Source: a bacterium (GTDB lineage: Bacteria; Ratteibacteria; UBA8468; B48-G9; JAFGKM01). From it: a stretch of DNA of 56,251 nt. A program made the translations under genes and the position numbers. Below the pieces are notes generated by a model that saw only the letters and a program-made list of their open reading frames with translations, was not told the origin of the DNA and did not search any database. Where the stretch lies: positions 12,939 to 69,189 of the forward strand of contig DAOOVW010000002.1 of the NCBI GenBank assembly GCA_035370465.1, given 5' to 3'. Numbering within the stretch: position 1 is the first letter of the stretch; every line of letters begins with the position of its first letter. This document shows positions 597 to 46,646 of the stretch, in pieces.

Positions 597-621
597 TTGT
601 AAAAAGGGCAACTTTAAAAAA

Positions 622-26314: not shown

Positions 26315-27628
26315 ATGGAAGAATTATTATGTGGTATAAGTAAAGTAGATATAACTCCACCGGTTGGATATTATCTTCAAGGTCATTCAGGTAGAAATAA
26401 GCCATCTAAAAAAGTCCATGACCCTTTATATTTAAAATTAGTTTGTCTTTCCGATAAGAAAACGACATTATATATTTTAAGTTCAGACCTTATTGGTTTT
26501 TCTGAAGAATTCGTCCATAATACAAGGGAAGAATTAAAAAATAAGTTAAAAATATCTCCTGAAAATTTTCTTTTTACTTCATCTCATACACATACAGGGC
26601 CATTTATTGAAAGCACTTATGGGGGTAAAGATAAAGTTGACCCTGACTACTTAAAAATTTTGCAGAAAAAAATAGTCGGTGCTGCCATTGAATCAAGAGG
26701 AAATATGGAAAAAGTAAATGTAAGGGTAGGAAAAGGCAAGGTTAATATTGGCATTGTTAACAGAAGGAAAAAAACAAAAAAAGGTGTATATATGATGCCA
26801 AATTTTGAAGGTCCAATTGATGAAGATGTCTCAGTAATAAAATTTGAGAAAAAAGATGGAACTTCAAAAGTAATTTTATTTAACTATACATGTCATCCAA
26901 CAACTTTATCAACTAAAATATATGAAATTTCTGCAGATTATCCAGGTGTAGCACAAAGGGAAATTGAAAAATCTTATTCGGGCTGTCTTGCTATGTTCAC
27001 AAATGGATGTTGTGGAGATGTCAGACCTGCTCTTGTTGAAAATGGTCAATTTATAGGGGGAAATTTTGAAGATATTGAAAGAATGGGAAAAATTTTATTT
27101 GGAGAGGTTATAAAAGTTAGCGAAAAAAGTATATCACTAAAAGAGGTTAAATTGAATAGTAAAATTGTTAACTTTAAATTTCAACTTGAAGATAAATTAA
27201 TACCTAAAAATATAAAACATCTTGAAGAGATTGTTCAAAGTTATAAAAAACAATTTTCATATTTTGGACCTGATATAATAGAGGAGTGGAAAGAAGATAT
27301 GAGAGGAAGAATTGAAAAGGGAGAAAAATTAAATAATTACATTGAAGGTTATTTACAATTTATCAAAATTGGGGATATTTTTATTTTAGGATTACCAGGA
27401 GAAATTATGGTAGAAATAGGAATTAAATTGAAAGAAAAAATAGGGAAAAATCTTATTATATTTGGCTATTCAAATGGGCTAATAGGTTATGTTCCAACTG
27501 CAAATGGAATAAAAGAAGGTGGATATGAAGCAGGGTCTTTCCTTTATCATAAATATCCAGCACCTTATTCAGAAAAAATGGAGAGCGATTTAATAAATGA
27601 AGTAATAAATCAGTTTAAGAAATTTTGA
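26315..27628 (+). CDS. Neutral/alkaline ceramidase-like hydrolase family protein
   Basis: The N-terminus GISKVDITPPVGYYLQGHSGRNKPS..VHDPLYLK, then SSHTHTGP and YTCHPT, resemble the N-terminal domain of the neutral/alkaline non-lysosomal ceramidase family. Confidence 0.5.
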   Translation: MEELLCGISKVDITPPVGYYLQGHSGRNKPSKKVHDPLYLKLVCLSDKKTTLYILSSDLIGFSEEFVHNTREELKNKLKISPENFLFTSSHTHTGPFIESTYGGKDKVDPDYLKILQKKIVGAAIESRGNMEKVNVRVGKGKVNIGIVNRRKKTKKGVYMMPNFEGPIDEDVSVIKFEKKDGTSKVILFNYTCHPTTLSTKIYEISADYPGVAQREIEKSYSGCLAMFTNGCCGDVRPALVENGQFIGGNFEDIERMGKILFGEVIKVSEKSISLKEVKLNSKIVNFKFQLEDKLIPKNIKHLEEIVQSYKKQFSYFGPDIIEEWKEDMRGRIEKGEKLNNYIEGYLQFIKIGDIFILGLPGEIMVEIGIKLKEKIGKNLIIFGYSNGLIGYVPTANGIKEGGYEAGSFLYHKYPAPYSEKMESDLINEVINQFKKF

Positions 27629-27680
27629 AAATTCAGATAATATTATCCAATTACAATAGTTAAAAATATAAGTGCATAGA

Positions 27681-28877
27681 ATGGAAAGAAAGGGCATTGC
27701 TTTTCTGCAAAAAAAACATAATAAATTGTTTGGGAAAAATAAGTCATATCTTATAAAAGTGCCATTAAGAATATCCCCTCTTGGTGCTCATATTGACCAT
27801 CAATTAGGAATTGTTTCCGGGATGACTATTGATAAATATATATTTTTTTTATTTAGCAAAAACAATAGTAAGAATGTTAAAATTTATAGTGAAAATTATA
27901 ATGACTTTGTTGAATTTTCAATAAATAAAAATTTTAAAAAAGAAAATAGATGGTCCGATTATATAAAAGGTGCTGCTCATATTCTTAAAGAAAAATTTAG
28001 AATCAAAAACGGTATAAATGGAGTTGTTTATGGAGAAATATCAACAGGTGGTTTAAGTTCCTCCGCTGCAACCGGGATTTCTTATCTTCTTGCACTTGAA
28101 AAAGTTAATGAAATTGTAGTTGATAAAACAGAAAATATCTCATTGATGCAAAAAATAGAAAATGAATTTATCGGATTAAATAATGGAATTTTAGACCAAT
28201 CAGTTATACTATTAAATTCCTTACATCCGCAATCTCTAATTTTTATTGACTGCAAATCTGGAAAATATAGGAATGTAATTCCAAAGAAGAAATTTGACTT
28301 TCAAATACTTATTGTCCACTCAGGGGTTAATAGAACCCTTTTAAATACAAACTATAATGAAAGAGTTAGTGAGTGTGAAGAAGCAGGAAAAATACTTTTA
28401 AAATTTGCAGGTAAAAAAATAAAAAAAAATATAAAATTAAGGGATGTTAAAAAAGAATATTTTGAAAAATTTAAAGATAAATTACCCGAAAACTTAAAGA
28501 AAAGGGCAACACATTTTTATTCAGAAATTGAAAGAGTTAAAAAAGGAGTTAAATACTGGGAGAAAGGAGAAATAGAGAAATTTGGCAAATTAATGAAAAT
28601 GTCTGGTGAAAGTTCAATAAAAAATTATGAGTGTGGAATACCCGAAACAATCCAATTACATGACATTTTAAACTCTATTCCAGAAATTTATGGAGCAAGA
28701 TTTAGTGGTGCTGGATTTGGTGGGAGTTGTATAGCATTAACAAAAGGTAATATTGAAAGGGAACAAATAATTGTGAACATTGAAAAAAAATATATACCAA
28801 AATTTCCTGAGTTAAAAGATAAATACAAGATATTTTTTACTAATCACGGGAGAAAACCAGAAATATTTGAATTATAA
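27681..28877 (+). CDS. galK: Galactokinase-family GHMP sugar kinase
   Basis: Galactokinase signature PLRISPLGAHIDHQLG, GHMP motif GGLSSSAATG, and C-terminal SGAGFGGSCIAL. I prefer the ATG at 27681 over the listed GTG at 27672. Confidence 0.75.
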   Translation: MERKGIAFLQKKHNKLFGKNKSYLIKVPLRISPLGAHIDHQLGIVSGMTIDKYIFFLFSKNNSKNVKIYSENYNDFVEFSINKNFKKENRWSDYIKGAAHILKEKFRIKNGINGVVYGEISTGGLSSSAATGISYLLALEKVNEIVVDKTENISLMQKIENEFIGLNNGILDQSVILLNSLHPQSLIFIDCKSGKYRNVIPKKKFDFQILIVHSGVNRTLLNTNYNERVSECEEAGKILLKFAGKKIKKNIKLRDVKKEYFEKFKDKLPENLKKRATHFYSEIERVKKGVKYWEKGEIEKFGKLMKMSGESSIKNYECGIPETIQLHDILNSIPEIYGARFSGAGFGGSCIALTKGNIEREQIIVNIEKKYIPKFPELKDKYKIFFTNHGRKPEIFEL

Positions 28878-28896
28878 TATAATTACTCCATCCATA

Positions 28897-30180
28897 TTAA
28901 CTTTGTTTTACTTCTTTTTTGTATAATTGGTCAATATCAGGAACTTTACCATTTTTTAGTTTGTATAACACTTCCCCTGCTTTTTCAACTACAAGTATTC
29001 CTTCATTTTCCCTGTTTTTATAATTTTCTCTGTCCAGAGTATCAGGATTAATATATCCCAAATTTATTTTCCGGCATATTTCTTCACTTATTCCTGTTGC
29101 AAGAATTACTTCAATTCTCGGTTTTTCAATTCCATCTATAAAAGTCCCTATTCCTTTAACATGTGTTGAATGAGCAAGAATACAACCAGGATAATTTTTA
29201 AATTTCTCCCATTGTTTTAGAAAATAATCTCTTGTATGATAACCAACTTCTTCTAAATATTTTCCGTGAGTATATGACACAACATTTATATGAGGAGCAA
29301 AAATAATAAGTTTTCCTCCATCAGCAACAACTGGTTCAAGTTTATACATACATTTTCCTGCTGTCCATATATCATCATACATAGGTGGTGCAACTGAAAT
29401 TACCATATTAAATGGCATATCAACATATTTTATATTTATTTTTGAAGAAAGTTGTGCTGCTTTTTCCCAGTCATCTGTATCACCAGCAAAAACACCGTAA
29501 ATTAAGTTTTCATTTACTACATAGTTTATTAAATGAACTTTTTTATTTATAAATGAAGCTGCAATATTTATTACATCTCGGACAGGTGTTTTTATTACTC
29601 CATTTATTTTAGGATTTGTTATTAAAGCTCCTAACCAGTGGAATTTATGTAAAAATTCAGGACCGCAAATTCCTGGAAAAAAATACTTATAACCACCTGA
29701 AAAACCAACAACTTCATGGGGAAAAACAGGACCGGAAATAATTATTTCATCATATTGAAAGATTTTTCTATTTATTCTAACAGGAATATTTTCATTTAAA
29801 AGGGTGCTTATATATTCTCCCATCTGTTGTTTATTTATTATACCGATTTCTTCAAGTGCCTCTGAATTATTCCACTGGTGCTGGAAAATTTCTGTTTCTT
29901 CATTTCCTTTTATATCTAAAAATTCTCTTATTTTTTCATCAGACATTTCTGGATGTGTTCCAAGTGCAATCATAAAATCAATTTTTTTTACTTTCTTTTT
30001 TAGAATATCTAAAATTGAATGAAAAAAAAGAGCAGTTGGTCCTGACCTTGTTGTATCAGGAATTATCACAAGGACCTTTTTATTAGAAAAATCATTTTCT
30101 TTTGTTAAATAATTTTCCAAAATTTTTCTTATTTCCTCTTCACTAATTATTCTATTTACCTCTCCTTTACCTGTTCCCAT
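28897..30180 (-). CDS. LarA-like (nickel-pincer dependent lactate racemase family, DUF2088) protein
   Basis: VLVIIPDTTRSGP, ALGTHPEMS and PHEVVGFSGGYKYFFPGI match the LarA pattern (D.TR, G.H, H...GFSGG.K...PG). The 427-aa length is typical. Confidence 0.65.
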   Translation of the reverse strand: MGTGKGEVNRIISEEEIRKILENYLTKENDFSNKKVLVIIPDTTRSGPTALFFHSILDILKKKVKKIDFMIALGTHPEMSDEKIREFLDIKGNEETEIFQHQWNNSEALEEIGIINKQQMGEYISTLLNENIPVRINRKIFQYDEIIISGPVFPHEVVGFSGGYKYFFPGICGPEFLHKFHWLGALITNPKINGVIKTPVRDVINIAASFINKKVHLINYVVNENLIYGVFAGDTDDWEKAAQLSSKINIKYVDMPFNMVISVAPPMYDDIWTAGKCMYKLEPVVADGGKLIIFAPHINVVSYTHGKYLEEVGYHTRDYFLKQWEKFKNYPGCILAHSTHVKGIGTFIDGIEKPRIEVILATGISEEICRKINLGYINPDTLDRENYKNRENEGILVVEKAGEVLYKLKNGKVPDIDQLYKKEVKQS

Positions 30181-30265: not shown

Positions 30266-30622
30266 AAAATCCCCCTCACTCCCGTTGTACTATCTGAAGG
30301 ACAATAACACACCAACTCTGCTTTGCTAATCATCCCCTCTTTTGTCGGGCTGTCAAAGGGGGAACATTTGTCTCCTTCCTTTATAAAAGGAAGGTGGGGA
30401 TGGATTTCCTGTAATTTCCTTAAATCCCCCTCTCTCCCCGTTGTGCTATCTGGAAAATCTCCCCTAACCCCTCTTTACGAAAGAGGGGTGTATTTTGGAA
30501 TAACGCACCAACTCTGCTTTTCTACCCTTTGCTTCTTTAGTCGGTTTGTTAAAGAGGAAATACACCTTCCCTTAAGAGAAGGAATGCTCGCCCGTAAGCT
30601 CCTCGCTTTTAGCTACGCATCC
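30266..30622 (+). repeat. Modular repeat, copy B (two tandem core units, no outer arms)
   Basis: Unit 1 spans 30266-30407 and unit 2 spans 30420-30622. Both show the box order CCCGTTGT(A/G)C..CACCAACTCTG..GTCGG..AAAG(G/A)GGAA..CCTTCC hairpin. Unit 2 carries an extra nested hairpin, CCCCTCTTT-ACGA-AAGAGGGG (30468-30488). The repeat ends 4 nt from the gnd stop codon. Confidence 0.85.
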
Positions 30623-30626
30623 TAAT

Positions 30627-32129
30627 TTATTTAGTTATTTCTTTTTCAGGTCTTCCTGGTAATAACCACTCAGTATGAAATTCCCTTATTTTTCCATTTT
30701 CTGTTTCTAATATCTCAGGACTTTCTTCTCCGCCAATTTTAAAATATCCATGTGCTCCAAAGTAATCTCTCTGTAAAGCAGTTACCTGACAGGCAAACAT
30801 AATTGGTGAAGTTAATTGTAAAATATAATCATAGGAATTTGCCAATCCTAATGCAGGAACTCCGACTTTATGAGAAATTTCAACCAACTTTCCAAGTTTC
30901 CATAAATTCTTTTTAATAAAATCAGAAAATTTACTGTGTGCAATCAAATTTAAAAGTTCAGGATTCTCTAAATATGCCTTTGTAATTTCATCAAGAAATT
31001 GTGCTCTTATAATGCATCCTGCTCTCCATATTTTTGCTATTTCTCCTAAATTTAAGTTGAATTTATAAAACTCAGATGCAGATTTAAGAAGTGCAAAACC
31101 CTGAGCATATGAAGAAATTTTACCTATATAAAGTGCATCATGAGCAATATCAATAATATCTTCCTTTTTCTCATTTAGTTCTTCTCTGATATTAAGAGGT
31201 AGAATTTTACTCATTTTCAATCTTAAATCTTTTTCCCCAGACATTTCTCTTGAAAACACAGCAGAAGATATTGTTGGAACAGGAACAAGTAATTCCAATG
31301 CACTTTGAACTGTCCATGTTCCAGTCCCTTTCATTCTTGTAATATCTGCCACAATATCAACAAGATATACTCCTTCGTTTCTTTTATCTTTTTCTTTCAA
31401 AAGGTCCGATGTAATTTCTATAAGATAAGATGATAATATATCATTTTTGTTATTCCACTTTTCCATAATTTCACCAATTTCTTCGCCTTTCATACATAAA
31501 GCATTTTTAAAAAACCAGCAAACTTCTCCAATAAGTTGCATATCTCCATATTCAATTCCATTATGTGTCATTTTTACAAAATGCCCTGCTCCACCAGGAC
31601 CAATAAAAGATACACATGGAGAACCATCATACGCTTTTGCTGAAATATCAGAAAACATTTTTTCAATAAGTTGATATGCTTCTTTTGAACCACCTGGCAT
31701 AATAGAAGGACCTTTTAAAGCCCCTTCCTCTCCACCAGAAACACCAGTTCCGATAAATAAAATTCCTTTTTCTGTTAAATATTCATATCTCCTGATAGTA
31801 TCTTTAAAATATGAATTTCCACCATCAATTATAATATCTCCCTTTTCAAGAAATGGAATAAGTTTTTCAATAAAATCATCAACTGGTTTTCCTTCTTTTA
31901 CCATCATCATTATTTTTTTAGGTTTTTTCAATAGTCCAACAAAATCCTTTATTTCATATGCTGGAATAATTTTTTTCCCTTTTGCCTGTGTTTCCACAAA
32001 ATTTTTTGTTTTCTCTCCTGTTCTATTATAAACAGCAACAGTATAACCCTTATCTTCAAAATTAAGGGCAAGATTTTTACCCATAACCTCCATTCCAATT
32101 ATTCCAATATCACATTTTTCCATTTTCAT
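30627..32129 (-). CDS. gnd: 6-phosphogluconate dehydrogenase (decarboxylating)
   Basis: IGIIGMEVMGKNLALN, GGNSYFKDT, GTGVSGGEEGALKGPSIMPGG and AGHFVKMTHNGIEYGDMQLI. Confidence 0.93.
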   Translation of the reverse strand: MKMEKCDIGIIGMEVMGKNLALNFEDKGYTVAVYNRTGEKTKNFVETQAKGKKIIPAYEIKDFVGLLKKPKKIMMMVKEGKPVDDFIEKLIPFLEKGDIIIDGGNSYFKDTIRRYEYLTEKGILFIGTGVSGGEEGALKGPSIMPGGSKEAYQLIEKMFSDISAKAYDGSPCVSFIGPGGAGHFVKMTHNGIEYGDMQLIGEVCWFFKNALCMKGEEIGEIMEKWNNKNDILSSYLIEITSDLLKEKDKRNEGVYLVDIVADITRMKGTGTWTVQSALELLVPVPTISSAVFSREMSGEKDLRLKMSKILPLNIREELNEKKEDIIDIAHDALYIGKISSYAQGFALLKSASEFYKFNLNLGEIAKIWRAGCIIRAQFLDEITKAYLENPELLNLIAHSKFSDFIKKNLWKLGKLVEISHKVGVPALGLANSYDYILQLTSPIMFACQVTALQRDYFGAHGYFKIGGEESPEILETENGKIREFHTEWLLPGRPEKEITK

Positions 32130-33212: not shown

Positions 33213-36200
33213 TTATTTTGACTCTAATCTTTCTTTATAAATTTTCGCTCTTTCTCCTAATGACTTAAATATTATAAAGACCCCCTCCCCTTTTCTTTCT
33301 GGCGGCAATTGGTCATTATGTGGTCTCCATAAACCTGCTCCTGGATTTGGTTCAATTTTATAAACAACAAGGGATGGTATTTCATTGCCTCTTTTGTCAT
33401 ATAATTTTCTTTTTTCTCCTTTTTCATTAAATAGAGGAATTGATAAAACCTTTTTATTTTTATCAACTCTTTTTATCTCTTTCATATTACTATCAAATAT
33501 TTTTATCTTAGTTGGATTACCTTTTTCATCATATAGAGGTATAAGTTTTTCTTCTTTTTCATCAAAAATATATTTTAAATTATCATCTTCATCTATAAGA
33601 AAAACAGGCATATAATCCCCCATTTCATAAGGAATATCATTTATTTTAAAACCGGTTAAATCAGAGAAAATTTCATCATACTTTACTTTTGACATAAATT
33701 CTGGATAAATTTTTAAATATTCATTTAAAACATATTTCCAATTCTTTTTTAAATATTTTCTTTGGGATTCCATACTTGAAAATGCTGCTTTTGTTATTTG
33801 TATCCTCATGTCGTTTCTATATTTTGGATTAATAATATCATCAGTATATTCAAAAAGTAGACCGCCCTGTCCAACATTGGCAATACCTTGAGTACTTATA
33901 ACAGTTATATGATGCGAAATTTTATAGTCACTTTTTTCAAAAACAAGAATCTGCCTGAAATATGAATACAATGGTGTCTGTGGTTCTCTATCAAGTAATA
34001 CAGGAACCCCAATTCTTGCAAATCTTTCAACAAGTTTTTCTAAAAATTCTTTTGAATATAATTGCCTTACTCTTGATTCAAGTACCTGCTGAATTACAAC
34101 ATTATCTGTTTTAGAAATTTCAAAAGTTAATTCTACCAATTTATCTATATTTTCTTCAATATATTTCCCATTTTCTTTTACTGGAAGTATAAGTGATTTT
34201 CTTCCTCCTGATTCTTTTTCTGGTTTTACAATCAATGCATCATATTTTCTTGCCAATTTGTATATTTTTTCTTTAATTTTATTCTTTGACTTACCTCCAT
34301 ACTTTTCAGTATCTTTTATATACCAGTTTTCCTGCTCAGGTGTTTTAACCCCAGAACCTTTTAACATTTTGGGAAGTTCACATTTAAGGTGAGTTGCTGC
34401 TTCCCATATTAATGGCTGGATTATTGGTATTCTGTAAGTATCTATTTCAGACCTTAATGGATGAGTAAAATGGAAAAAAATTCCATGAAGTGTAATTACC
34501 CCTTTAAATGTTCCAAAGACCAGTCCATTTTCATTTTCACCAAATTTTTTATATTTCTCTCTGAGTTTTTTTATGTCATTTTGGTTTGGATAGAACATAC
34601 CTTCTCTTATTGTAAGAACTTTTTTATCTTCTTTTAATTCAGGAATAGGAAATGAAGTTAAGAAAAGATTTATATTGGCATTTGTTGAAAGGATTGGTCC
34701 TTGTTGTAAAGCAACAGGAACCGTTGTATTGCCATAGGGATATATTATCCCAAGATTAACTCTTTCAGATACAGATAAGTCAGCAGGGTCAATCTGCATA
34801 ATTATTTCTGGGTATCCAAAACCCTCATATTTTAAAACAACACTATCTCTTAGACGAACATAATGAAACCAAAAATCCTCGTCTTTATTCTCCCCTCTTA
34901 TTCCAATCCCATAAATATTTTTATCAAAATTTCCAAGATATAAATCAGTATAATCAGAAGAAAATTTCTTCATAGATGTTTTTTCAGATATAAGAGACCT
35001 TAAATATGTATATAGATACCTATGATATTGACAGGCAAGTTGAAATTTCTTATCTCTTGGAATTTTTTCAAAAGTTGAGGACCTTTCTTTTGAATAATGG
35101 TAAGGGAGAGAATCAAAAATATGATTATTTACTGTTAAATCAAAAAATTTAGATATTTCAGTATTAAATTCCTCATCTGAATTGAGATTAATTGTTTTTT
35201 CAATTAAAAGTGAAATATCAATAAGTTCAAGTCCAGCACAGATTTCATTGTAAAATTCATAATTTCCTGTCTTTACATCAGCGGAACTGGCAAGATTTGT
35301 AACAAGAGATAAATAGTTTTTATCAGTTATCACATTTTCTGAAAATAAATTATTTATATCCTGTAATAAATTTTTCCCATTAAAAGATACAATCTCTTTA
35401 TTAAGAAATTCAAGATATAATTTTGAAATCCGCAGATATTTTCCGAAATCATAGGGAGAAATAGTATTTGTCCCTTTTCCTATAATTTCTTTCGCCTTTC
35501 CATATATAAGAGAAAGATTTTTAGGATAATTTTCTATTACCTTTTCTACATCAAGGAAACCTCTTTTCTTTTCTCTTATGCATTTTACTCTTTCAATTTC
35601 TTTTTTTCTTTCTTCCCACCTTGCAAGTCCCTCAACTTTTTCTTCAACTGCTTTTAGAGAACCAGCAAGTCCTGTACTTATCTCTCTATACTTATATTGT
35701 TTAGGTGGATGATAAATAGACCTTAAAAAGTTGTTAACAATAAAATCTATTTCTTTTTGTCCATAACTTTCTTTACCTGAAACACCAAATAATTTTTTTA
35801 ATTTTATTCTATATTTTTCTCTTAATTCTGAAATTTCTTCTTTTTCTAATTTCCCATTTATAATATAACTTCCTCCATAAATTATCCATTTCCCAAAATC
35901 AAATTCATTTAGTTTTATACCTTTTGAAATTTTTGCAAAAGTATCAGTTATATATCTATCTCTCAAATTCCATACGCCTAAATTTTTTGCATCTCTTTCC
36001 TCTCTTAAAACATCGTCAAATTTTCTTTCAATAAGAATATTCTTTTTTATTCTATTTAAAACCTCTCCTGCTTTTTCTTTGTTCTCATTTAATATAGCAG
36101 TTAAAAATTCCTCACTTAAACTTTTCTCATCATTTAATTGGTTTTTCCATTTTTCAATTGTTTCTTTTCCTATTCCAAGACAACCATAAACAACTTTTTC

Positions 36201-39200
36201 TTCAAGTGCAAAAAGTTCTTTTACTTTCCTTCTGCAGTTCGGATAATTAAAAGCAAATGTAGGTCTTCTTGCCCCAGAAGTTCCGTCTGCAAAAACCAAC
36301 CCACTATTTGGCCTTCCTTTTTTCATCAAATAAAGCATCTTTGGTAAATTATCAACTAATTCTAATAGTTCCGGGTCAGGTATCCCCAGGTCAATGAAAT
36401 CAATACCTTGAATTGCCTCTTCATATGAAGAAAAAGGTCCTCTTTTGTCAATAACAAGAAGATGGATTTTCCCTTCAAGGTCTTTTATTATTTTTTCTTT
36501 TTCTTTCTCTGTTCTATCCTTTATTCCTATCCACCTTTTTAAATTTCCTCCATATACAAGGCAATTTGTCCTTATAATATTTTCATCAATTCCAATATTT
36601 AATAAGTAATTCTCAACTTCATTTTTTATTTGTTCAAGTCCTGAATTAGGCACATGATTTAGAATATCTGAGCCAGTGCAACTGCCAACAATTCTAATAT
36701 CAGCAGGTGGAATAAAATCTTTGAACATCTCTTTAATTATTTCTCTTCCTTCCGGGTCAATATCAAGAAGTATATGATTATCTGCAACATTAGAATATAT
36801 TTCAAGTTTTCTGCTTCCTGCACTGAACCTCACATCAGAGACAGGTATCAATTTCCCATCTTTTTTCTCCCCTTCTTTATAATTTGCTGTCATAACGCCT
36901 ATCAATTCACTGTCATCAACTAAATATGGATTTTTCTTCCTTGCCTGATGTATAAGTTGATAAATAAGTTTAACTTTTCTAAAAGGACCTGTTCTATTTA
37001 TTTCTTCTAAACCCTGTGCTTTTTTGTTAACCCAGTAAGTAAATTTATATTCAAGTTCTTTTTCTTTATTTTCAATAAGCCCCATTTTCCCAAGTATCTT
37101 TGCAATTTGTGGTAATCTTGAAAGACAGATGGGCTTTCCAATTATTCCAAAATATTCAGGATATTTTTTGAAAAGATAAGAAGTTGCTTTTTCTTCCCAT
37201 TCTAATTCAGAAGTAATTTCTGCTCGCCAACCAAGAACTTCTCGCAAATCTTTTATTATATGTTCCTGAATTTTTTCTGGTATTCCAAATGAAGATAATA
37301 TCTGAGAAGATATTTCTCTATCAACACATGCTATAATTATTGCATAAAGAAGACTGAATTCCTTAGGAACACAAAAACCTCCATATGTTTCACCTGCTGG
37401 TAAGACCTTTCTATCACCTCTTGCATTCCATTGATTTCTGAAAAATTCAAAATCGCCCATTCCCAGTGTATCAAGATTTATACTGCCTGCTAATGAAAGA
37501 TAATAGACACCACCTCTTGAAAAGAAATTTTCCCCTACTTTTAAAAATTCAGTTACTCTTGTAGAAGGAACAACAGTTGGACCTGCAATATTATAAAGGC
37601 GATATAATTCTTTCCCAGAATTTGCAGAAATATCATCTATACCACCTACCCATTTAGGAATATCTCTTACTGAAAAAACTTCTTTTGCTCCAAGGTCCAC
37701 TCTGCTTGGAGTATAAAGTAAGTTATATCTTTTAAAAGGGCCTTCTGCTTCATATCTAAAAAGTGGATTTGAAAGTTCACTTATTAAATTTTCTTCAACA
37801 ATAACTTCTTTTTGAGCATTAATAGTTGAATATGTTGGATTGAGATAATTTTTAAGAAACTCTTTTGTTTCTTTTTCTAGATTGAAATTTCTAATCATAT
37901 CTTCTCTTGTTTTCTTTAAAATTTTCAGATTCTCTTCTTCCTTTATATCAATTAAATTTATATTTTCCAGACATTTTAAAACGCATTCTGGTTCTTTTAC
38001 TTTAAAATCTTTTCTATTTAAATTTTCACCCTCTTTTTGCAACAGAATTATTATTTTTGATACTTCTTTTCCTATTTCTGGATAAGAAAAAAGACATTTT
38101 AATATTCCCTGTTCTCCTTCTCCTAACTTGTAAATTTCCCCTTCAAGATTGTTTTCTTTAATTATTTTTTCACCTATTTTTATTATATTTTGTCTCCATA
38201 TTTCCATTTTTCCTTTTACTTTTTCTTCAAGTTTGTGTCTTCTTATAATATTGAATAAAAGCATACTTTCCTCAAGCCAGTTTTTTACATTAAGTTCGCT
38301 TTCACCCGGTCCAAGAGTAGTTAAAATATGAATAGAAGGAAGATTCCTTTTTGGATAATCTACAAGCGATAAATATTTCTCATGGAGTTCCAGAATACAA
38401 TGTTCTTCAAGGAATTTTTCAAGTTGATTTTTTAATGATTTAATGCCTTTATAATTTTTCAAAAATTCTTTTACCAGATTACCTTTTTCCACTTCATTTA
38501 TAGCAAGTGTTAATCCTTCAAATCTTAGCAGTTTCTCTCTTTCACATATTTCAGATATCTGCCTAATCATATTCTCATATGATTTTTCAATGAGTGCAGA
38601 AATATAGGCAATTTCCTTCTTTTTATTTCTTGTTCTTTCAATTAATTGTTTTTCATCCTTAAAATTTATCTTTAAAATTTTGGAGAGAATATTTCTTGCA
38701 AGAAAAACATTTTCTGTAAGCATAACCTCTTCTATATTTAATGCCCAGTTTTCAGCATTTGTTCTGTACATTTCCTCAAGAATATTTCTCTGAACCCATG
38801 CAGTGAACTTATAAGAACCATTTTCAGGTATTATTTGATATGTTGCATATGCAGGAAGTGCTTCTATCCAGTCATCACAAATTCTAAGCCAGTCCTTCAT
38901 ATCAGGTGTTACATAAATGTTTTCCCCCCCATTTGCAAGTAAATTTTCAATTTCAGGGTCCTCCCCAAAAAAAGGGTCAAGTAATTCATTTAAAAGTCCC
39001 ATATATATTGCATCTATTGGAAAAACCCTCTGGAAAAATATCATATAAATAGGTGTTCTTGATGGAAATTTGTTTAATTCATTTTCAAATTTTTTTATTT
39101 CAACTCTGATATTGTCAAAAACTTTTCTATCCTGCATCATAAATTCTGCATTCTCATCAAATTTCTGGACAAGTTGAAATTCATAATTTCTTAATGTATC

Positions 39201-39857
39201 TTTTAAGTTTTTCAATCCACATTTTATCTGTGCAATAGAGACATCATTTTCTCCTGTTAAATTATCAAGAAATTGTATATCACTTTCTATTGGTAAAAAA
39301 CTAATTTTTGACTTTGAAATTATTCTTCTTATTTTTTCTAAAAGGAGAGTTATTACATTTGAAGAGAGCAATTTTGAATTTGCTAAAAGTAAAGCATCAA
39401 TATAAAAAGCACGACTGAATCTTCCACATACAATTCTTCTTCCCGATTCTTTTCTATCTAAAGCAATTTTCTCACAACATTCTCTGTCTTGTTTTTCATC
39501 ATATGTTTCTCTTATTGCTTCATAAATCTGGCTTCTTAAATTTTCAAGGTCTTTTACTGTCTCTATAACATATTTAACTTTTTCTCTATTATAAGGCAAA
39601 CCAAAGTTTTTTCTTGACAAAAGTAGCGCACACAATTTTTTTCTCTTTATTACATCTTTTTCTTTTTCCCCTTCCTCAAGAAAATTTATATACCATTGCC
39701 CATTTTTTTCCTTACTGAATATTTTTATTATTTTATTCCTTTGAGATGGAGAAAATTTTTCATAAATTGAAATGTAAGATAAAAGAACTTCCTTTTTCCC
39801 TTCTGCCTTCAAATTTTTAATAAATTTTCCTATTTTCATTTTATATAAATTCTGCAC
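33213..39857 (-). CDS. Giant (2,214 aa) multidomain protein: unknown N-terminal region + UDP-glucose/GDP-mannose dehydrogenase-like module + unknown middle region + RimK/GshB-like ATP-grasp C-terminus
   Basis: The ORF is uninterrupted over 6.6 kb. Dehydrogenase-like motifs: GEGEQG (aa 579-584), TEFLKVGENFF, PAGETYGGFCVPKEF (Cys829) and VMTANYKEG..VSDVRFSAGSRKL. ATP-grasp motifs: ALIVKPEKESGGRKS (aa ~1874-1887), GIANVGQGG (aa ~1991-1999) and KIEPNPGAGLW (aa ~2167-2177). An alternative ATG at 39839 lies 1 nt after the upstream stop. Confidence 0.6.
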   Translation of the reverse strand: MQNLYKMKIGKFIKNLKAEGKKEVLLSYISIYEKFSPSQRNKIIKIFSKEKNGQWYINFLEEGEKEKDVIKRKKLCALLLSRKNFGLPYNREKVKYVIETVKDLENLRSQIYEAIRETYDEKQDRECCEKIALDRKESGRRIVCGRFSRAFYIDALLLANSKLLSSNVITLLLEKIRRIISKSKISFLPIESDIQFLDNLTGENDVSIAQIKCGLKNLKDTLRNYEFQLVQKFDENAEFMMQDRKVFDNIRVEIKKFENELNKFPSRTPIYMIFFQRVFPIDAIYMGLLNELLDPFFGEDPEIENLLANGGENIYVTPDMKDWLRICDDWIEALPAYATYQIIPENGSYKFTAWVQRNILEEMYRTNAENWALNIEEVMLTENVFLARNILSKILKINFKDEKQLIERTRNKKKEIAYISALIEKSYENMIRQISEICEREKLLRFEGLTLAINEVEKGNLVKEFLKNYKGIKSLKNQLEKFLEEHCILELHEKYLSLVDYPKRNLPSIHILTTLGPGESELNVKNWLEESMLLFNIIRRHKLEEKVKGKMEIWRQNIIKIGEKIIKENNLEGEIYKLGEGEQGILKCLFSYPEIGKEVSKIIILLQKEGENLNRKDFKVKEPECVLKCLENINLIDIKEEENLKILKKTREDMIRNFNLEKETKEFLKNYLNPTYSTINAQKEVIVEENLISELSNPLFRYEAEGPFKRYNLLYTPSRVDLGAKEVFSVRDIPKWVGGIDDISANSGKELYRLYNIAGPTVVPSTRVTEFLKVGENFFSRGGVYYLSLAGSINLDTLGMGDFEFFRNQWNARGDRKVLPAGETYGGFCVPKEFSLLYAIIIACVDREISSQILSSFGIPEKIQEHIIKDLREVLGWRAEITSELEWEEKATSYLFKKYPEYFGIIGKPICLSRLPQIAKILGKMGLIENKEKELEYKFTYWVNKKAQGLEEINRTGPFRKVKLIYQLIHQARKKNPYLVDDSELIGVMTANYKEGEKKDGKLIPVSDVRFSAGSRKLEIYSNVADNHILLDIDPEGREIIKEMFKDFIPPADIRIVGSCTGSDILNHVPNSGLEQIKNEVENYLLNIGIDENIIRTNCLVYGGNLKRWIGIKDRTEKEKEKIIKDLEGKIHLLVIDKRGPFSSYEEAIQGIDFIDLGIPDPELLELVDNLPKMLYLMKKGRPNSGLVFADGTSGARRPTFAFNYPNCRRKVKELFALEEKVVYGCLGIGKETIEKWKNQLNDEKSLSEEFLTAILNENKEKAGEVLNRIKKNILIERKFDDVLREERDAKNLGVWNLRDRYITDTFAKISKGIKLNEFDFGKWIIYGGSYIINGKLEKEEISELREKYRIKLKKLFGVSGKESYGQKEIDFIVNNFLRSIYHPPKQYKYREISTGLAGSLKAVEEKVEGLARWEERKKEIERVKCIREKKRGFLDVEKVIENYPKNLSLIYGKAKEIIGKGTNTISPYDFGKYLRISKLYLEFLNKEIVSFNGKNLLQDINNLFSENVITDKNYLSLVTNLASSADVKTGNYEFYNEICAGLELIDISLLIEKTINLNSDEEFNTEISKFFDLTVNNHIFDSLPYHYSKERSSTFEKIPRDKKFQLACQYHRYLYTYLRSLISEKTSMKKFSSDYTDLYLGNFDKNIYGIGIRGENKDEDFWFHYVRLRDSVVLKYEGFGYPEIIMQIDPADLSVSERVNLGIIYPYGNTTVPVALQQGPILSTNANINLFLTSFPIPELKEDKKVLTIREGMFYPNQNDIKKLREKYKKFGENENGLVFGTFKGVITLHGIFFHFTHPLRSEIDTYRIPIIQPLIWEAATHLKCELPKMLKGSGVKTPEQENWYIKDTEKYGGKSKNKIKEKIYKLARKYDALIVKPEKESGGRKSLILPVKENGKYIEENIDKLVELTFEISKTDNVVIQQVLESRVRQLYSKEFLEKLVERFARIGVPVLLDREPQTPLYSYFRQILVFEKSDYKISHHITVISTQGIANVGQGGLLFEYTDDIINPKYRNDMRIQITKAAFSSMESQRKYLKKNWKYVLNEYLKIYPEFMSKVKYDEIFSDLTGFKINDIPYEMGDYMPVFLIDEDDNLKYIFDEKEEKLIPLYDEKGNPTKIKIFDSNMKEIKRVDKNKKVLSIPLFNEKGEKRKLYDKRGNEIPSLVVYKIEPNPGAGLWRPHNDQLPPERKGEGVFIIFKSLGERAKIYKERLESK

Positions 39858-41337: not shown

Positions 41338-42162
41338 TTAGACACCTGAAAAAGCATTAAAACCACCATCTATTGGGACAACAATTCCTGTCACAAATTT
41401 TGATGCATTTGAAGATAGATATATACAAATACCTATCAGTTCATCAGGATTTCCCATCCTTCCCATTGGTGTATGTGAAATTATTGTTTTTCCTCTTGGT
41501 GAAAGGTTTCCATTTTCATCTAAAAGTAAATATCTATTCTGCTGAGTAAGAAAAAAACCAGGTGCAATAGCATTAACTCTTAGATTTTTGTTATATTCAA
41601 AAGCAAAATGTGCTGCAAGCCATTGTGTAAAATTACTTACTGCTGCTTTTGCAGCAGAATAACCAGGAATTTTTGTTAAAGGCCTGAAAGCATTCATTGA
41701 TGATATATTTATAATTGAACCTCCCTCTTTATTCTTTACCATTTCTTTCCCAAATACCTGTGCTGGTAAAATTGCTCCACCAAAAAGGTTAAGAATAAGA
41801 ACCTTTTCAAGAGCAGAAAGAGGTAGGTCAAAAAAGGATAAGTCATCTGATGTTGTTGCCTCTTTCATATTTCCACCTGCTGCATTAACAAGAACATCAA
41901 TCCTGCCATATTTATCAATTACTTTTTTACATGTTTTTTCAATTTCATCTTTCTTCAAAACATCAATATACATACTATCTACTTCAATCCCTTCTTTCTT
42001 GAATTCTTCTCTTTTTTCCTCAAATCCTTTAATATCACAAATAATAACCTTTGCTCCACTTTTTGAAAAACCTTTTGCAATTTCTCCACCAAGAATGCCA
42101 CATCCACCTGGTATTACAACAACTTTGTTTTCTACTGAAAATAATTTTTCTACAAATTTCAT
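41338..42162 (-). CDS. Short-chain dehydrogenase/reductase (SDR) family oxidoreductase
   Basis: VVVIPGGCGILGGEI (TGxxxGxG-like), NAAGG, and SSM...YSAAKAAV (catalytic Y-x-x-x-K). I prefer the ATG at 42162 (AAAAAGGAGAAG upstream) over the listed 42249 start. Confidence 0.85.
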   Translation of the reverse strand: MKFVEKLFSVENKVVVIPGGCGILGGEIAKGFSKSGAKVIICDIKGFEEKREEFKKEGIEVDSMYIDVLKKDEIEKTCKKVIDKYGRIDVLVNAAGGNMKEATTSDDLSFFDLPLSALEKVLILNLFGGAILPAQVFGKEMVKNKEGGSIINISSMNAFRPLTKIPGYSAAKAAVSNFTQWLAAHFAFEYNKNLRVNAIAPGFFLTQQNRYLLLDENGNLSPRGKTIISHTPMGRMGNPDELIGICIYLSSNASKFVTGIVVPIDGGFNAFSGV

Positions 42163-42176
42163 TTTCTTCTCCTTTT

Positions 42177-42206
42177 TATATAACTGCGGGGGTTGAACTT
42201 TTGTTT
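42177..42206. repeat. 30-bp perfect direct repeat, copy 1 (TATATAACTGCGGGGGTTGAACTTTTGTTT)
   Basis: Identical 30-mer to 45824..45853. It is GC-rich relative to the surroundings and lies just upstream of the SDR start. Confidence 0.9.
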
Positions 42207-42220
42207 TAATTACTAAAATT

Positions 42221-42249
42221 ATTTTAAACCCTATTTTTTTTGATATCAA
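42221..42249 (-). promoter_or_regulatory. Candidate sigma-70 promoter of the SDR-to-gnd operon
   Basis: On the minus strand: TTGATA (42249-42244), a 17-nt spacer, then TAAAAT (42226-42221). Such matches are common by chance in AT-rich DNA. Confidence 0.3.
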
Positions 42250-42378: not shown

Positions 42379-43230
42379 TTATTTTTTATGTATCTCAAAG
42401 GTAGTTCCTGTTGTTAAGTCAGATACAACGGTCCCCGGTAAAAATTCAATTTTTGTTTCTTCTTCTGAAATAGCTTTCCCTACTGAAATCTCCTCTACTT
42501 TCCAAATATTTTTTATCAATCCTTCAGGAGTCTTTCCTTCTGTTATCATCTTCATCGGAAACCAACAATCCTTACATACTTCTTTGTAGTCAAAGAATTC
42601 AACAGTATCTTCAATTTTGTTGTTCACGGTTCTTTCTATTAACACTGGACAGAATCCTATATCTTGTCCTAACCAAATGTTATAGCAAATGTCTCCTTCG
42701 CTTATTTTTACTAACCAACATTTATGTCCATCTATAACTTTTTGTTCTCTTGTAACTTTCCCTTTTTCTAAAGCATCATAAAGGAAATAAGAATTCTTCA
42801 AAAAAATTGGGCAATATGTCGTCTCTAATTTTATACCACTTAAGATCGGCCCCAATCCCATATCAATCTCACCGAATTTCTTATCACTTTGGGAAATGCT
42901 AATTTCCTTCCGAGTGCCAGAATTTCTTTCATACTTTCCTTTATATGTAAATTTCAATTCTTTTCCTTCAAAATGTTTGGTTTCCATAAAAAAACAATTT
43001 GGAGTTCGAACATACTGGGATATTATTTCCGAATTTTCTTTTTCGACATCTGTCAGAATTGTAATTTGACATTTCACTTTTAAAGCAGGATAACTCAAAT
43101 TTTCTTGATTTTTCAAAGATGCCTTTATAAATTCTATAGTTGGAATTTCTTCTGCTTGTAATATACTTCCTGTTAAACCACAAATTATTAAAAACATTAA
43201 AACCAATTTTATATTTAATTTTTTTAACAT
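42379..43230 (-). CDS. Secreted LolA/RseB-like (outer-membrane lipoprotein-sorting-like) protein, paralog 1
   Basis: N-terminal signal peptide (KLVLMFLIICGLTGSILQA). The C-terminal FLPGTVVSDLTTG resembles the C-terminal F.F.PP.GV.V.D of LolA. It is a paralog of the next two genes. Confidence 0.4.
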   Translation of the reverse strand: MLKKLNIKLVLMFLIICGLTGSILQAEEIPTIEFIKASLKNQENLSYPALKVKCQITILTDVEKENSEIISQYVRTPNCFFMETKHFEGKELKFTYKGKYERNSGTRKEISISQSDKKFGEIDMGLGPILSGIKLETTYCPIFLKNSYFLYDALEKGKVTREQKVIDGHKCWLVKISEGDICYNIWLGQDIGFCPVLIERTVNNKIEDTVEFFDYKEVCKDCWFPMKMITEGKTPEGLIKNIWKVEEISVGKAISEEETKIEFLPGTVVSDLTTGTTFEIHKK

Positions 43231-43250: not shown

Positions 43251-44168
43251 TCAGTTCTTTTCAGGCACAGTAAAAGAAATCCCTGTCCTTTCATCATAAA
43301 CTTGTGTGCCAGGTGGAAAAGTTAAATTAAATTCTTCATCTTTTATCCCTTGGTTAACTTTTATATTAGAATATACCATTTTACCTTCTGCACTGATTTT
43401 TTTGGAAGAAGGATCATACCATTTTATAGAAACTCCTCCTGGGAACCATATATCTTTGTCTATACTAAATTTTTCAAAATTAATAGGACCTACACTTATT
43501 ATTAAATCTTCCTGTCTGTATATTTCAATTTTTTTAGGCAAAAAACCTTCTTCCACAGAGAACCATATTTTATATCCTAAATAGGAATAATCATCCTTGC
43601 CATATCCTTTGAACTCTTTAAATCCAAAACTTGGAACTTCTACTACAAAACATTTACTCCCAGCAAAATATTCAGAATTAGATAGTATTTTTAATTTTTC
43701 ATTTTGGAGAATTTCTTCCAAAGTAATACCCACAGGCCACAGATGAAATAGAATGGATGAAGGAACCCAAGTCGGTCTAATTTTTAGTTGAATATAATAA
43801 GGTGAATATCCCATAGTAACTGATGCAATTTTACCTTTCTCAAAGTTTATTATATAAGTGTTTTCAGGAGTGTAAATATAAATAATTTCATTTATATTTT
43901 TTGATTCATCCACTGCTTTAAGAAAAACTTTTTCTTTGCCATCTTTATAAAACCATTTTCCGCTTTTTATTTCCTTGCTATTTTTATAAGTTAGTTCAAA
44001 TTCTACCGATGCATCTTGTATAAGAGACAGGTTATACCTAATTCCTTGTAAAACAAATTCTAATTCATCTTTTGGCTCACAAAATACAAAGTTAGTTTTG
44101 GTAATACAAGCATTTTGTAATACAAATACCAATATACTCAGAAAAATAATTTTTTTTATTTTGTCCAT
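43251..44168 (-). CDS. Secreted LolA/RseB-like protein, paralog 2
   Basis: Signal peptide MDKIKKIIFLSILVFVLQNAC and C-terminal FNLTFPPGTQVYDERTG. I prefer the ATG at 44168 (GGAGGG upstream) over the listed TTG at 44201, which lies inside the repeat arm. Confidence 0.4.
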   Translation of the reverse strand: MDKIKKIIFLSILVFVLQNACITKTNFVFCEPKDELEFVLQGIRYNLSLIQDASVEFELTYKNSKEIKSGKWFYKDGKEKVFLKAVDESKNINEIIYIYTPENTYIINFEKGKIASVTMGYSPYYIQLKIRPTWVPSSILFHLWPVGITLEEILQNEKLKILSNSEYFAGSKCFVVEVPSFGFKEFKGYGKDDYSYLGYKIWFSVEEGFLPKKIEIYRQEDLIISVGPINFEKFSIDKDIWFPGGVSIKWYDPSSKKISAEGKMVYSNIKVNQGIKDEEFNLTFPPGTQVYDERTGISFTVPEKN

Positions 44169-44195
44169 TTTCCCTCCTATGTTAAAAGAGGGTAC

Positions 44196-44598
44196 TGCCA
44201 AAATTGGCTAATTAAATTCACTCCTCACTTTCTCACAAAGACAAATGAAATGTGAAAAGTGAGATGTGAGAAGTAGAAATCCCGTAAGCGTAACTTATCG
44301 CTTCGGCGTAGGGATGGTCTGTAAGCAAAACTCTAAACCCTTCTGTGTAAGACAATCCACCCCTGCCCTCCTCCTCTACTAAAACATTGGCGGACATGTT
44401 TTTTAAAGGAGGGAGAGTATTTTCCCCCTTTAGTAAACCGACTAAAGTTGCAAAGTTTAGCACACAGAGTTGGTGCTGTAATGTATTTCAATAGGCACAA
44501 CGGGGATGAAGGAGGATTTTGAGAGGGATCTAACAAGCACAACGGGGTAGGGAGATTTTTATTTTTCATCTCTCTTTTATCTATTTTTTGACACTACC
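44196..44598 (-). repeat. Composite modular repeat, copy C (R arm + 40-nt hairpin module + 1 core + partial core + L arm)
   Basis: TGCCAAAATT at 44196 is the R-arm end on the minus strand. Hairpin module AAATCCCGTAAGCG..GCGTAGGGATGG at 44278-44317. Core at about 44351-44520. An extra partial GCACAACGGGG box at about 44537-44548. L arm CTATTTTTTGACACTACC at 44581-44598. Confidence 0.9.
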
Positions 44599-45875: not shown

Positions 45876-46646
45876 TTAAAAGGAAAAATCAGGGTGTGTA
45901 AAAGAAATTAGTTTTTTTGTATTTCCACATAAAACCCATAAATAATAAATTTGAAACTTTGGAGCAACTGCAACTGGATGATAGCCCTTAGGTATTGTAA
46001 TAACTTCATCATTTTTCACTACAAATATATTATCCTCTGTTTCATCAAATATCCTCATAACTCCAAAGCCACTTTTAGGCTTTATCTTAAAGAAATATAG
46101 TTCTTCAAGTTTTGTTTCAACTGGTGGATTATCTTTATCGTGTTTGTGTGGGGGATAACTTGACCAGTTTCCAGGGTCATTTATTGTTTCTCCAAGCAGT
46201 AATCTCTCAGAAGAAGATTCCTCAGTTAATATATCTGTTATATTTCTAAAATATACTTCTTCCCCTACCCTTCTGAACTTAACATTTTTTTTATCAATAA
46301 ATAAAGGAGTTCCTTTTCCCGTTGCTAAACAACTTAATACACAAATCTCTGTCTTGCCTATAAATTCAATTCTATATTCAAGAAAGGGAGGAAGATAAAC
46401 TGCAACAGGTGGTTCATCAAAAACATTTGTTCTTTTCATTTTTCCAAATAATTTATTTTCTAAAAAGAAATTGCAGTTTCCTTCAGTTATAACAAAAACT
46501 GTTTCATTTTTCTTTGTATTATCTTTAAATATTTCACCCTCTGAAAATCGAATTATCCCACAATTTAAAAACTCTAAATCACTTGTTTCAGGTGTAATTA
46601 TTTGTTGATAACCTTCAATTTTTTCAATTTTATAATGTTGTGCCAC
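45876..46646 (-). CDS. iolB: 5-deoxy-glucuronate isomerase (KduI/IolB family)
   Basis: GNWSSYPPHKHD..........LEELYFFKI.P..GFGVMRIF......D....V.NDEVITIPKGYHPVAVAP.FQIYYLWVLCG matches the IolB signature region. GTG start after AAGGAGGG. Confidence 0.75.
   Translation of the reverse strand: MAQHYKIEKIEGYQQIITPETSDLEFLNCGIIRFSEGEIFKDNTKKNETVFVITEGNCNFFLENKLFGKMKRTNVFDEPPVAVYLPPFLEYRIEFIGKTEICVLSCLATGKGTPLFIDKKNVKFRRVGEEVYFRNITDILTEESSSERLLLGETINDPGNWSSYPPHKHDKDNPPVETKLEELYFFKIKPKSGFGVMRIFDETEDNIFVVKNDEVITIPKGYHPVAVAPKFQIYYLWVLCGNTKKLISFTHPDFSF

Follow-up and report, generated by a model that had tools for sequence, protein, structure and literature searches.

A 56,251-nt stretch of contig DAOOVW010000002.1 (assembly GCA_035370465.1), which comes from a bacterium of the Ratteibacteria and is referred to here as the window, carries on its minus strand an open reading frame (ORF) of 6.6 kb whose product, hereafter the giant, appears to belong to an undescribed multi-enzyme family. 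Its parts fall into known superfamilies, those of the UDP-sugar/GDP-mannose dehydrogenases and of the ATP-grasp ligases, but the giant itself scores below every curated family threshold. We consider it very probable that the giant is a real, catalytically active dehydrogenase-like/ATP-grasp enzyme which acts on a sugar derivative. Together with a second ATP-grasp protein (the partner) and a GHMP sugar kinase it forms one functional unit. Details of the features are presented in Table 1.

The first-pass annotation, which was made from the letters of this DNA without database searches, had described the ORF as uninterrupted over its 6.6 kb, and this is confirmed in our analysis. At the base composition of the window (~29% G+C) stops should occur about once in 12 codons, and the probability of finding 2,214 stop-free codons by chance, calculated from this composition, is ~1e-82. 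All eight motifs quoted in that annotation were also found at the residues where it had placed them. The GTG start listed for the ORF runs into the upstream gene. An ATG at 39839 is located 1 nt past the TAA stop of the upstream GHMP-kinase gene and coincides with giant residue 6-7, where the alignment of homologues begins; the window protein's own 90% cluster, in which a Candidatus Ratteibacteria protein is found, also has a member of 2,208 aa, a length that fits this start. The true start is probably the ATG at 39839, giving a protein of 2,208 aa. No hydrophobic segment could be identified in the giant except for a buried helix after Cys829, and the possibility of a membrane or secreted protein was dropped for this reason.

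An AF2 model of residues 1-1200, built with 30 homologues (pLDDT 86.4, pTM 0.83), was compared to the PDB with Foldseek, and nearly all of the top 50 matches are nucleotide-diphosphate (NDP)-sugar dehydrogenases with a probability of up to 1.00. Two of these, 3g79 and 1mfz, align over 942-949 query columns and the match must therefore start upstream of residue ~260. The model suggests a module of approximately residues 140-1230 in which the Rossmann domain would be split by three insertions. A related signal is seen in the sequence profiles. The NCBIfam scan gave a match to TIGR03026 at residues 706-874 (E 1.2e-5, 24.3 bits against a cutoff of 189.8), and a distant relative (P0059) alone reaches PF00984, with 45.4 bits. 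A single-sequence search of the PDB was marginal (3g79 at E 0.021), while a 21-sequence family profile gave matches that cover the central domain and the Cys loop, with E values of 1.5e-8 for 3g79 and 1e-6 for 4r16. Alignment of the family with hhalign to Ugd and WecC of E. coli and to a UDP-glucose dehydrogenase (UGDH) from a metagenome-assembled genome (MAG) gave a probability of 90%, family residues 512-1085 being paired with residues 3-380 of Ugd. The UDP-sugar-dehydrogenase-like core proposed by the first-pass annotation is thus supported by profiles and by fold. The ~570 N-terminal residues that it had left unassigned would mostly be the split Rossmann domain of the dehydrogenase itself, and residues 7-138 are still without a known relative.

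Conservation was followed in an alignment of 61 proteins which includes relatives just 22-28% identical. Residues C829, K832, K773, N777, E776, K994, D1008 and R1010 are invariant in all 61, and position 833, where the canonical residue is Asp, is Glu in 59 and Asp in the other two. The Cys829 loop aligns to the GGHC(L)(T/P)KD of 3g79 and 4r16. Homologues without Cys829 and the E-x-N motif of the ATP-grasp half were what the first-pass annotation had named as speaking against it, and none was found, as E-x-N is also kept in all non-truncated homologues. At the position where the Glu of canonical enzymes that hydrolyses the thioester aligns, the giant carries Ser718, and this residue is Ser in 61 of 61 sequences. 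Its counterpart in human UGDH is E161, which we take to be the thioester-hydrolysis Glu, in agreement with the title of PDB entry 3khu; in this structure, which is among our Foldseek matches, E161 was mutated to trap the intermediate. Alignment by hhalign to a single UGDH gives another register of the PE motif, with a variable residue at the E161 position. Since the hydrolytic Glu is replaced by S718, it is possible that free uronate is never released. The sequence of uronate formation and amidation suggested in the first-pass annotation is plausible, but with S718 at this position other couplings are conceivable too.

The putative nucleotide-binding loop is less canonical, as no GxGxxG of the usual form is conserved across the 61 proteins. 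The loop following the first putative strand reads GRFSRA (residues 145-150) with invariant R146 and R149. Another conserved, non-canonical Gly-loop candidate is GPGESE (residues 516-521), and hhalign to three UGDHs places TTLGPGESE on the GxGxxG of Ugd with low confidence; from its place in the strand order of the model, this segment may rather be read as an STVPxGT-like motif. The first-pass annotation had taken GEGEQG as the NAD motif. We rejected this segment as a dinucleotide motif because it is unconserved (residue 579 is Gly in 7 of the 61) and lies within an insertion that is helical in the model.

For the C-terminal half, the AF2 model of residues 1100-2214 (pLDDT 86.6, pTM 0.72) was matched by Foldseek to Ddl, DcsG, GshB, RimK-domain proteins and other ATP-grasp peptide ligases at a probability of 0.99-1.00. 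Entries 6dgi, 2i87, 6jil, 1gsa and 5i47 were matched with E values from 2.4e-5 to 2.7e-2. The ATP-grasp ligase that had been proposed at this end of the protein is therefore upheld, with Ddl, DcsG, GshB and RimK at a probability of 1.00 and a target TM of 0.45-0.53, and its top structural relatives are all carboxylate-amine ligases. Profile search against PDB sequences missed the ATP-grasp chains, which were detected by the fold search alone. In all non-truncated members K1878, E1882-S-G-G-R1886, Q1923, N1994-x-G-Q-G-G1999 and E2169-x-N2171 are kept. The segment N1994-VGQ-GG1999, which is of the N-x-x-x-GG type known from RimK and GshB, is invariant; these two proteins are among the structural matches, with no membership by profile hidden Markov model (HMM). 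By their position these residues correspond to the sites at which ATP-grasp enzymes hold ATP, Mg and the acyl phosphate; assigned from motif position, K1878 and the ESGGR loop are putative ATP ligands and E2169-x-N2171 a putative Mg site. The substrate N-domain starts near residue 1685 with the family-invariant motifs GNTTVPVAL and HFTHP. Of the ~800 residues between the modules that the first-pass annotation could not assign, those from 1685 to 1870 belong to this N-domain, whereas residues 1231-1684 remain without a known relative. A beta-hairpin repeat insert of short (L/F)(Y/F)D-x-x-G-x-x units, kept in homologues, is present at residues 2085-2162 (33372-33605).

More than 550 residues of the giant have no detectable relative. 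The N-terminal domain (residues 7-138) has neither a Pfam nor a PDB match and no confident Foldseek match, and no confident structural match was found by Foldseek for residues 1231-1684, which contain the invariant motif FDxTxNxHIFDxxPYHY at residues 1572-1588. Karyopherin, OGT-TPR, 14-3-3 and designed-repeat proteins matched these helical regions with low probability and were set aside as helical-repeat noise. A HMMER search with a profile of residues 1230-1850 against 1.84 billion cluster representatives returned 113 proteins at E <= 1e-3, all of them members or fragments of the giant family (2,000-7,944 aa). As this exhaustive search matched family members alone, the region is family-specific and the family rare.

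In a search space of 5.8 billion proteins we found 61 relatives, ~57 of which are full-length (2,195-2,570 aa) with 40-67% identity to the giant. The mean column identity in a 21-sequence alignment is 50%, and conservation extends along the whole length. Scanning GTDB with one genome per species gave 41 loci, nearly all from metagenome-assembled genomes, with one from a single-cell genome. The closest homologues (~60% identity) are from Omnitrophota and Ratteibacteria; others are from Aminicenantes, Aerophobetes, Latescibacterota, Sumerlaeota, Armatimonadota, Planctomycetota, Spirochaetales, Elusimicrobia, Desantisbacteria and Zipacnadia, and from the archaeal Bathyarchaeota. The family spans at least a dozen bacterial phyla, most of them uncultured, in addition to Bathyarchaeota. 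Named homologues are without exception called "hypothetical protein", the Pfam scan of the giant gave no match at E <= 0.1, and our literature searches found no paper describing its domain combination, which is consistent with the earlier statement that no protein of this fused architecture had been described. A fully fused homologue (P0060, 3,864 aa) is recorded for the dictyostelid Synstelium polycarpum (EukProt EP01133), the candidate readings being eukaryotic origin and contamination. Its nearest relatives, searched with an 800-aa piece, are metagenomic fragments, one of which lies in a bacterial MAG beside a multihaem cytochrome (L051).

The first-pass annotation had not mentioned the partner, the kinase or the fusion of both with the giant in other lineages. 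The partner reaches PF02655 ATP-grasp_3 with 27.0 bits (cutoff 23.2), and among its 23 scanned orthologues ATP-grasp_3 was matched in 10, ATPgrasp_ST in 7 and YheCD in 3. The ATP-grasp of the giant is a distant relative of it (hhalign probability 83%). The kinase matches the Pfam families GalKase_gal_bdg, GHMP_kinases_N and GHMP_kinases_C, with scores above their cutoffs (PF00288 63.4/22.3, PF08544 45.8/21 and PF10509 32.0/23.1 bits). Within the PDB it comes closest to human GalNAc kinase 2a2c (4e-32), galactokinases also being close. Since it scores below the TIGR00131 galactokinase equivalog cutoff (172 vs 226.65 bits), we regard it as a family member and not as a confirmed galactokinase.

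In 28 non-redundant loci the gene directly downstream of the giant is the partner, and just ~3 loci with enough sequence have no detectable copy of the partner. The kinase is on the same strand within 6 kb of the giant in 22 loci, and any other neighbour recurs in at most 5. Single polypeptides in the order giant-partner-kinase are present in P0058 (3,848 aa), P0060, P0209, P0214, P0228 and others. Such fused relatives are 3,000-5,600 aa in length, and the ORF of P0058 is uninterrupted in its own contig under the standard code. Among the 24 family representatives of at least 2,900 aa, 22 contain the partner and at least 13 the kinase too, the order being constant. Collapse of the three-gene module into a single polypeptide in many relatives, a Rosetta-stone case, makes the functional unit well defined.

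Some of the larger relatives are accompanied by further domains and genes. The 3,848-aa fusion resides in locus L047 (JGI 3300029268, 165 kb, 41% GC) in a run of very large same-strand ORFs with called products of 849 (cut), 1,148, 1,752, 3,848, 859, 2,117 and 3,083 aa (cut), which include a SIS+PGM_PMM protein and a metallo-beta-lactamase/beta-CASP protein of 2,117 aa. In members of 4,400-6,200 aa, which are predicted gene models, extra domains are seen: phosphofructokinase, HD, HEAT and CsrA-like domains in P0199, a CsrA-like domain in P0207, a hexokinase in P0220 and a GlgC/eIF2B-epsilon-like left-handed beta-helix (LbH) in P0210.

Several observations weigh against the oxidise-then-amidate route proposed below and have to be set beside this evidence. 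The giant scores far under the cutoff of TIGR03026, its only dehydrogenase-family match, and is below the curated threshold for all of PF03721, PF00984, PF03720 and TIGR03026; no ATP-grasp model of Pfam or NCBIfam matches it at E <= 0.1. The Glu needed to turn the thioester into the free acid is, as aligned, the invariant S718. Binding of NAD(P) is putative, as no canonical GxGxxG is conserved, and the Cys829 loop is poorly modelled (pLDDT < 50 for residues 822-833). The kinase is not beside the giant in some lineages, as in the Aminicenantes loci L001 and L011. In addition, neither a nucleotidyltransferase, nor a glycosyltransferase, nor an amine-supplying enzyme is conserved in the module.

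The route that we propose for the unit builds on the two folds, the conserved catalytic residues, the reality of the gene and the linkage of the three genes, fusions included; the substrates, cofactor, redox direction and acceptor(s) are what we infer. The GHMP kinase would make a hexose- or N-acetylhexosamine-1-phosphate. Cys829, assisted by Lys773, Asn777 and Glu833, would then oxidise the C6 alcohol of the sugar via an enzyme-bound thiohemiacetal and thioester. The C6 carboxyl would next be handled as an acyl phosphate by the ATP-grasp of the giant and then by the partner, and each ATP-grasp would join the C6 carboxyl, or the next carboxylate, to an amine acceptor; the route would thus end in an amide-decorated uronate. 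There is a precedent in the Campylobacter capsule, where a separate ATP-grasp, Cj1438C, turns the C6 carboxylate of glucuronate into an amide (PMC11800379). We put forward this specific oxidise-then-amidate route tentatively, as a conceivable one that falls somewhat short of being probable.

Because the hydrolytic Glu is invariably lost, a direct hand-over between thioester and acyl phosphate is attractive. Combined with the obligate fusion to an ATP-grasp that forms acyl phosphates, this loss raises the possibility that the acyl group passes straight between the two halves (Cys829 thioester <-> C6 acyl phosphate <-> ATP), either in a reductive or in an ATP-yielding manner, which we consider rather unlikely but worth keeping in mind.

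In its reductive form, the ATP-grasp would make the C6 acyl phosphate of a uronate or uronate-1-phosphate, Cys829 would take it over as thioester, and NAD(P)H would reduce it to the aldehyde or alcohol. The fusion would serve to channel the labile acyl phosphate, and the GHMP kinase would be a uronate-1-kinase. Ser at position 718 in 61 of 61 sequences is expected if thioester hydrolysis must be avoided, and Cys829 is still in place, as is the Lys/Asn pair. Acyl phosphates are what ATP-grasp enzymes form, and P5CS offers a precedent for joining an enzyme that makes an acyl phosphate to a thiol reductase. The window also holds genes of uronate/hexonate catabolism, namely KduI, a short-chain dehydrogenase/reductase (SDR) resembling mannonate oxidoreductases, a LarA-like epimerase and gnd, and a phosphohexomutase is a neighbour in L002 and L047. 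However, such sugar-acid neighbours are confined to certain lineages, two ATP-grasp modules would be left unexplained, the ATP-grasp is closest in structure to amine ligases, and we know of no member of the UGDH family that acts in reverse. A reductase of this kind seems unlikely to us.

It is also conceivable, though quite unlikely, that no redox reaction takes place at all. The dehydrogenase-like half would then merely bind a sugar or nucleotide, or Cys829 would be an acyl carrier, and the giant would be a large ATP-grasp ligase on a degenerate UGDH scaffold making, for example, a peptide, a polymer or a modified metabolite. The GRFSRA in place of a Gly-rich loop, with no canonical GxGxxG, the TIGR03026 score of 24 bits against a cutoff of 190 and the huge insertions which break up the fold are all in keeping with such a scaffold. 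Yet C829, K773, N777, E833, K994 and R1010 are kept across proteins down to 22-28% identity, and as conservation of the full catalytic set is hard to explain otherwise, catalysis at the Cys829 site is favoured.

An energy-conserving oxidation in the manner of GAPDH and PGK appears decidedly improbable. In such a scheme phosphate would cleave the C6 thioester at Cys829 to an acyl phosphate, from which the ATP-grasp, running backwards, would make ATP from ADP. The missing hydrolytic Glu and the fusion of a thioester-forming with an acyl-phosphate-handling module are compatible with it, the ATP-grasp domains of ADP-forming acyl-CoA synthetases physiologically run in the ATP-forming direction, and the members of the family are found mainly in uncultured lineages, which are mostly fermentative or anaerobic. 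The scheme is nevertheless purely inferential. The ATP-grasp of the giant resembles Ddl, GshB and RimK and not the succinyl-CoA-synthetase type, the associated kinase consumes ATP, and a second ATP-grasp is not needed.

A role in anti-phage defence or as a toxin-like system, with the giant as its ATP-consuming core, might be suggested by the patchy distribution, the large size and the ATP-binding domains, but it is very improbable, as PADLOC models gave no match to the giant, partner or kinase, the neighbours are metabolic and not defence or mobile-element genes, and the fusions are to sugar kinases. An assembly chimera (which the first-pass annotation had asked to be checked), a read-through or a decaying pseudogene, ideas prompted by nothing but the extreme ORF length and the metagenome origin, are scarcely credible and for practical purposes excluded, since the uninterrupted full-length architecture is seen again in ~57 proteins of independently assembled origin and in the genomes of 41 species, drawn from many studies and phyla, every domain is conserved, both halves are modelled confidently and the chance of such an ORF is vanishing.

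Gene order in the window suggests an operon of SDR, kinase, giant, partner and gnd followed by a terminator-like hairpin, which is the probable operon end. The association with the SDR is limited to the closest relatives: SDR matches are found in 5 loci, and the neighbour cluster comprises four Omnitrophota-type loci (L005, L007, L008 and L014) and L043. The gnd gene has matches in just 3 loci and its association is window-specific. The sugar-acid genes around the module are KduI (45876-46646), the KduD-like/mannonate-type SDR, a LarA-family Ni-dependent hexonate-epimerase-like gene (28897-30180) and gnd, of which the SDR alone recurs, in the closest relatives. In other loci AP_endonuc_2, GFO_IDH_MocA, PGM_PMM and 6-phosphogluconolactonase-like genes are neighbours. 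In L001 an ATP sulfurylase, an APS kinase, a canonical UGDH and an epimerase-UGDH fusion lie upstream in divergent orientation, and canonical UGDH genes lie upstream in L011. Taken together, neighbours and fused domains suggest sugar or sugar-phosphate metabolism, and the module probably marks a sugar-processing pathway.

A separate galactokinase-like gene of canonical size (401 aa) is present at 27672-28877 (+), adjoining a gene with a neutral/alkaline ceramidase N-terminal domain at 26315-27628 (+), and the kinase of the module is therefore an extra paralogue and not the housekeeping GalK. The gene string of the module continues directly upstream with two ORFs on the minus strand, 42379-43230 (283 aa) and 43251-44201 (316 aa), for which neither Pfam nor NCBIfam gave a match and which have no counterpart in any of 45 related loci. 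The GC/AT skew changes sign near 28-29 kb, where the genes on the plus strand (10.6-28.9 kb) converge at 28877/28897 with those on the minus strand (28.9-56 kb). This flip could be a coding-strand purine bias or a replication-terminus-like switch.

Table 1. Features of the giant ORF and of the genes beside it (positions in the window; residues numbered along the 2,214-codon ORF)
Feature	Residues of giant	Position	Strand	Basis or remark
Giant ORF		33213..39857	minus	2,214 codons + stop, uninterrupted; ORF listing and translation
N-terminal all-helical domain	7-138	39444..39839	minus	AF2, pLDDT ~90; family-specific
UDP-sugar/GDP-mannose-dehydrogenase-like module	139-1230	36168..39443	minus	Profile, AF2, Foldseek
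Putative Rossmann strands	141-146, 163-165, 205-207, 270-275, 508-511, 712-715			AF2
Dehydrogenase insertions	about 208-263, 280-505, 544-700			AF2 strand order
Motif GEGEQG	579-584			
TPSRVDLG, equivalent of (N/A)PE(F/R) motif	716-723	37689..37712	minus	Aligned to 3g79 'APERVMVG'
Dehydrogenase central domain	starts near 764			
Motif TEFLKVGENFF	769-779			
Motif PAGETYGGFCVPKEF	820-834	37356..37400	minus	Catalytic-loop equivalent with nucleophile Cys829, K832 and E833
Dehydrogenase C-terminal domain	starts near 986			
Motif VMTANYKEG	988-996			
Motif VSDVRFSAGSRKL	1006-1018			
Family-specific helical region	1231-1684	34806..36167	minus	AF2
ATP-grasp module	1685-2214	33216..34805	minus	Foldseek, motifs, hhalign to partner
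Motif ALIVKPEKESGGRKS	1874-1888			
Motif GIANVGQGG	1991-1999			
Motif KIEPNPGAGLW	2167-2177			
Partner ATP-grasp, 355 aa		32141..33208	minus	Starts 4 nt past giant stop
GHMP sugar kinase, GalK/GalNAc-kinase type, 498 aa		39841..41337	minus	Stop 1 nt before giant ATG
SDR oxidoreductase, D-mannonate-oxidoreductase type		41338..42249	minus	Abuts kinase; NF006132 343.6 bits vs cutoff 281
6-phosphogluconate dehydrogenase gnd		30627..32129	minus	11 nt past partner, last in apparent operon
Terminator-like hairpin		30565..30582	minus	Just past gnd; consensus scan, matches in the region no more frequent than in shuffled sequence

The giant represents a large family without a Pfam or NCBIfam model or a named member, and can seed a new protein-family model; no description of the three-gene module was found in the literature that could be searched. 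If the oxidise-then-amidate route is true, the module would be a self-contained, nucleotide-sugar-independent way to amide-decorated uronates, and a hand-over between thioester and acyl phosphate, if true, would be a new mechanism of energy coupling. Direct acyl exchange, if it occurs, would mean an ATP-driven sugar-carboxylate reductase or a GAPDH/PGK-like, ATP-yielding oxidation of the primary alcohol of a sugar. Either would be without precedent for the UGDH fold and would add a new type of reaction to the carbohydrate metabolism of many phyla that are uncultured. The system is a tractable target, since the proteins are predicted to be soluble, the catalytic residues are clear, and orthologues are available from thermophilic and mesophilic MAGs.

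Among known enzymes, the NDP-sugar 6-dehydrogenases (M. mazei NDP-GalNAcA dehydrogenase 3g79, P. horikoshii UDP-ManNAc dehydrogenase 4r16, CalS8, and human and bacterial UGDH) share with the giant the fold of Rossmann, helical central and Rossmann-like C-terminal domains, the E-x-x-K-x-x-x-N helix (E770, K773, N777), the GG-x-C-x-P-K-(D/E) loop (C829) and the C-terminal K...D-x-R-x-S (K994, D1008, R1010). In contrast to these enzymes of ~400-480 aa, the dehydrogenase module of the giant is ~1,090 aa long with three large insertions, falls under every curated threshold, has Ser718 for Glu and no GxGxxG, and is covalently attached to ~1,000 extra residues. As no nucleotidyltransferase accompanies it, the substrate may not be an NDP-sugar. 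The kinase of the module has the same GHMP fold and galactokinase sugar-binding signature as GALK2 (2a2c) and the galactokinases (E 4e-32), but is ~100 aa longer than bacterial GalK and below the galactokinase equivalog cutoff.

In P5CS (ProB-ProA) and in Asp kinase/ASADH, an acyl phosphate from one module is captured by the Cys of an NAD(P)H-dependent module. Their folds (amino-acid kinase and aldehyde-dehydrogenase type) are unrelated to those of the giant and their substrates are amino acids, so that they are analogues for the reverse coupling alone. The chemistry proposed for the giant is the same as that of the Cj1438 amidoligase of the Campylobacter jejuni capsule, whose C-terminal TupA-like ATP-grasp forms an amide by activating a uronic acid at its C6 carboxylate (PMC11800379). 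No sequence match between Cj1438 and the giant was detected. The Cj1438 amidoligase is fused to a glycosyltransferase and acts on the growing polysaccharide, its UDP-glucuronate being supplied by a separate canonical dehydrogenase (PMC11800379), whereas the giant module is without a glycosyltransferase. With Ddl, GshB, RimK and DcsG the giant has in common the three-domain ATP-grasp fold, the Lys, the flexible Gly loop, N-x-x-x-GG and E-x-N. It differs from them in the size of the module (~530 aa), the hairpin insert and its own GNTTVPVAL and HFTHP motifs, and in being part of a protein of ~2,200 aa that is nearly always paired with a second, distantly related ATP-grasp.

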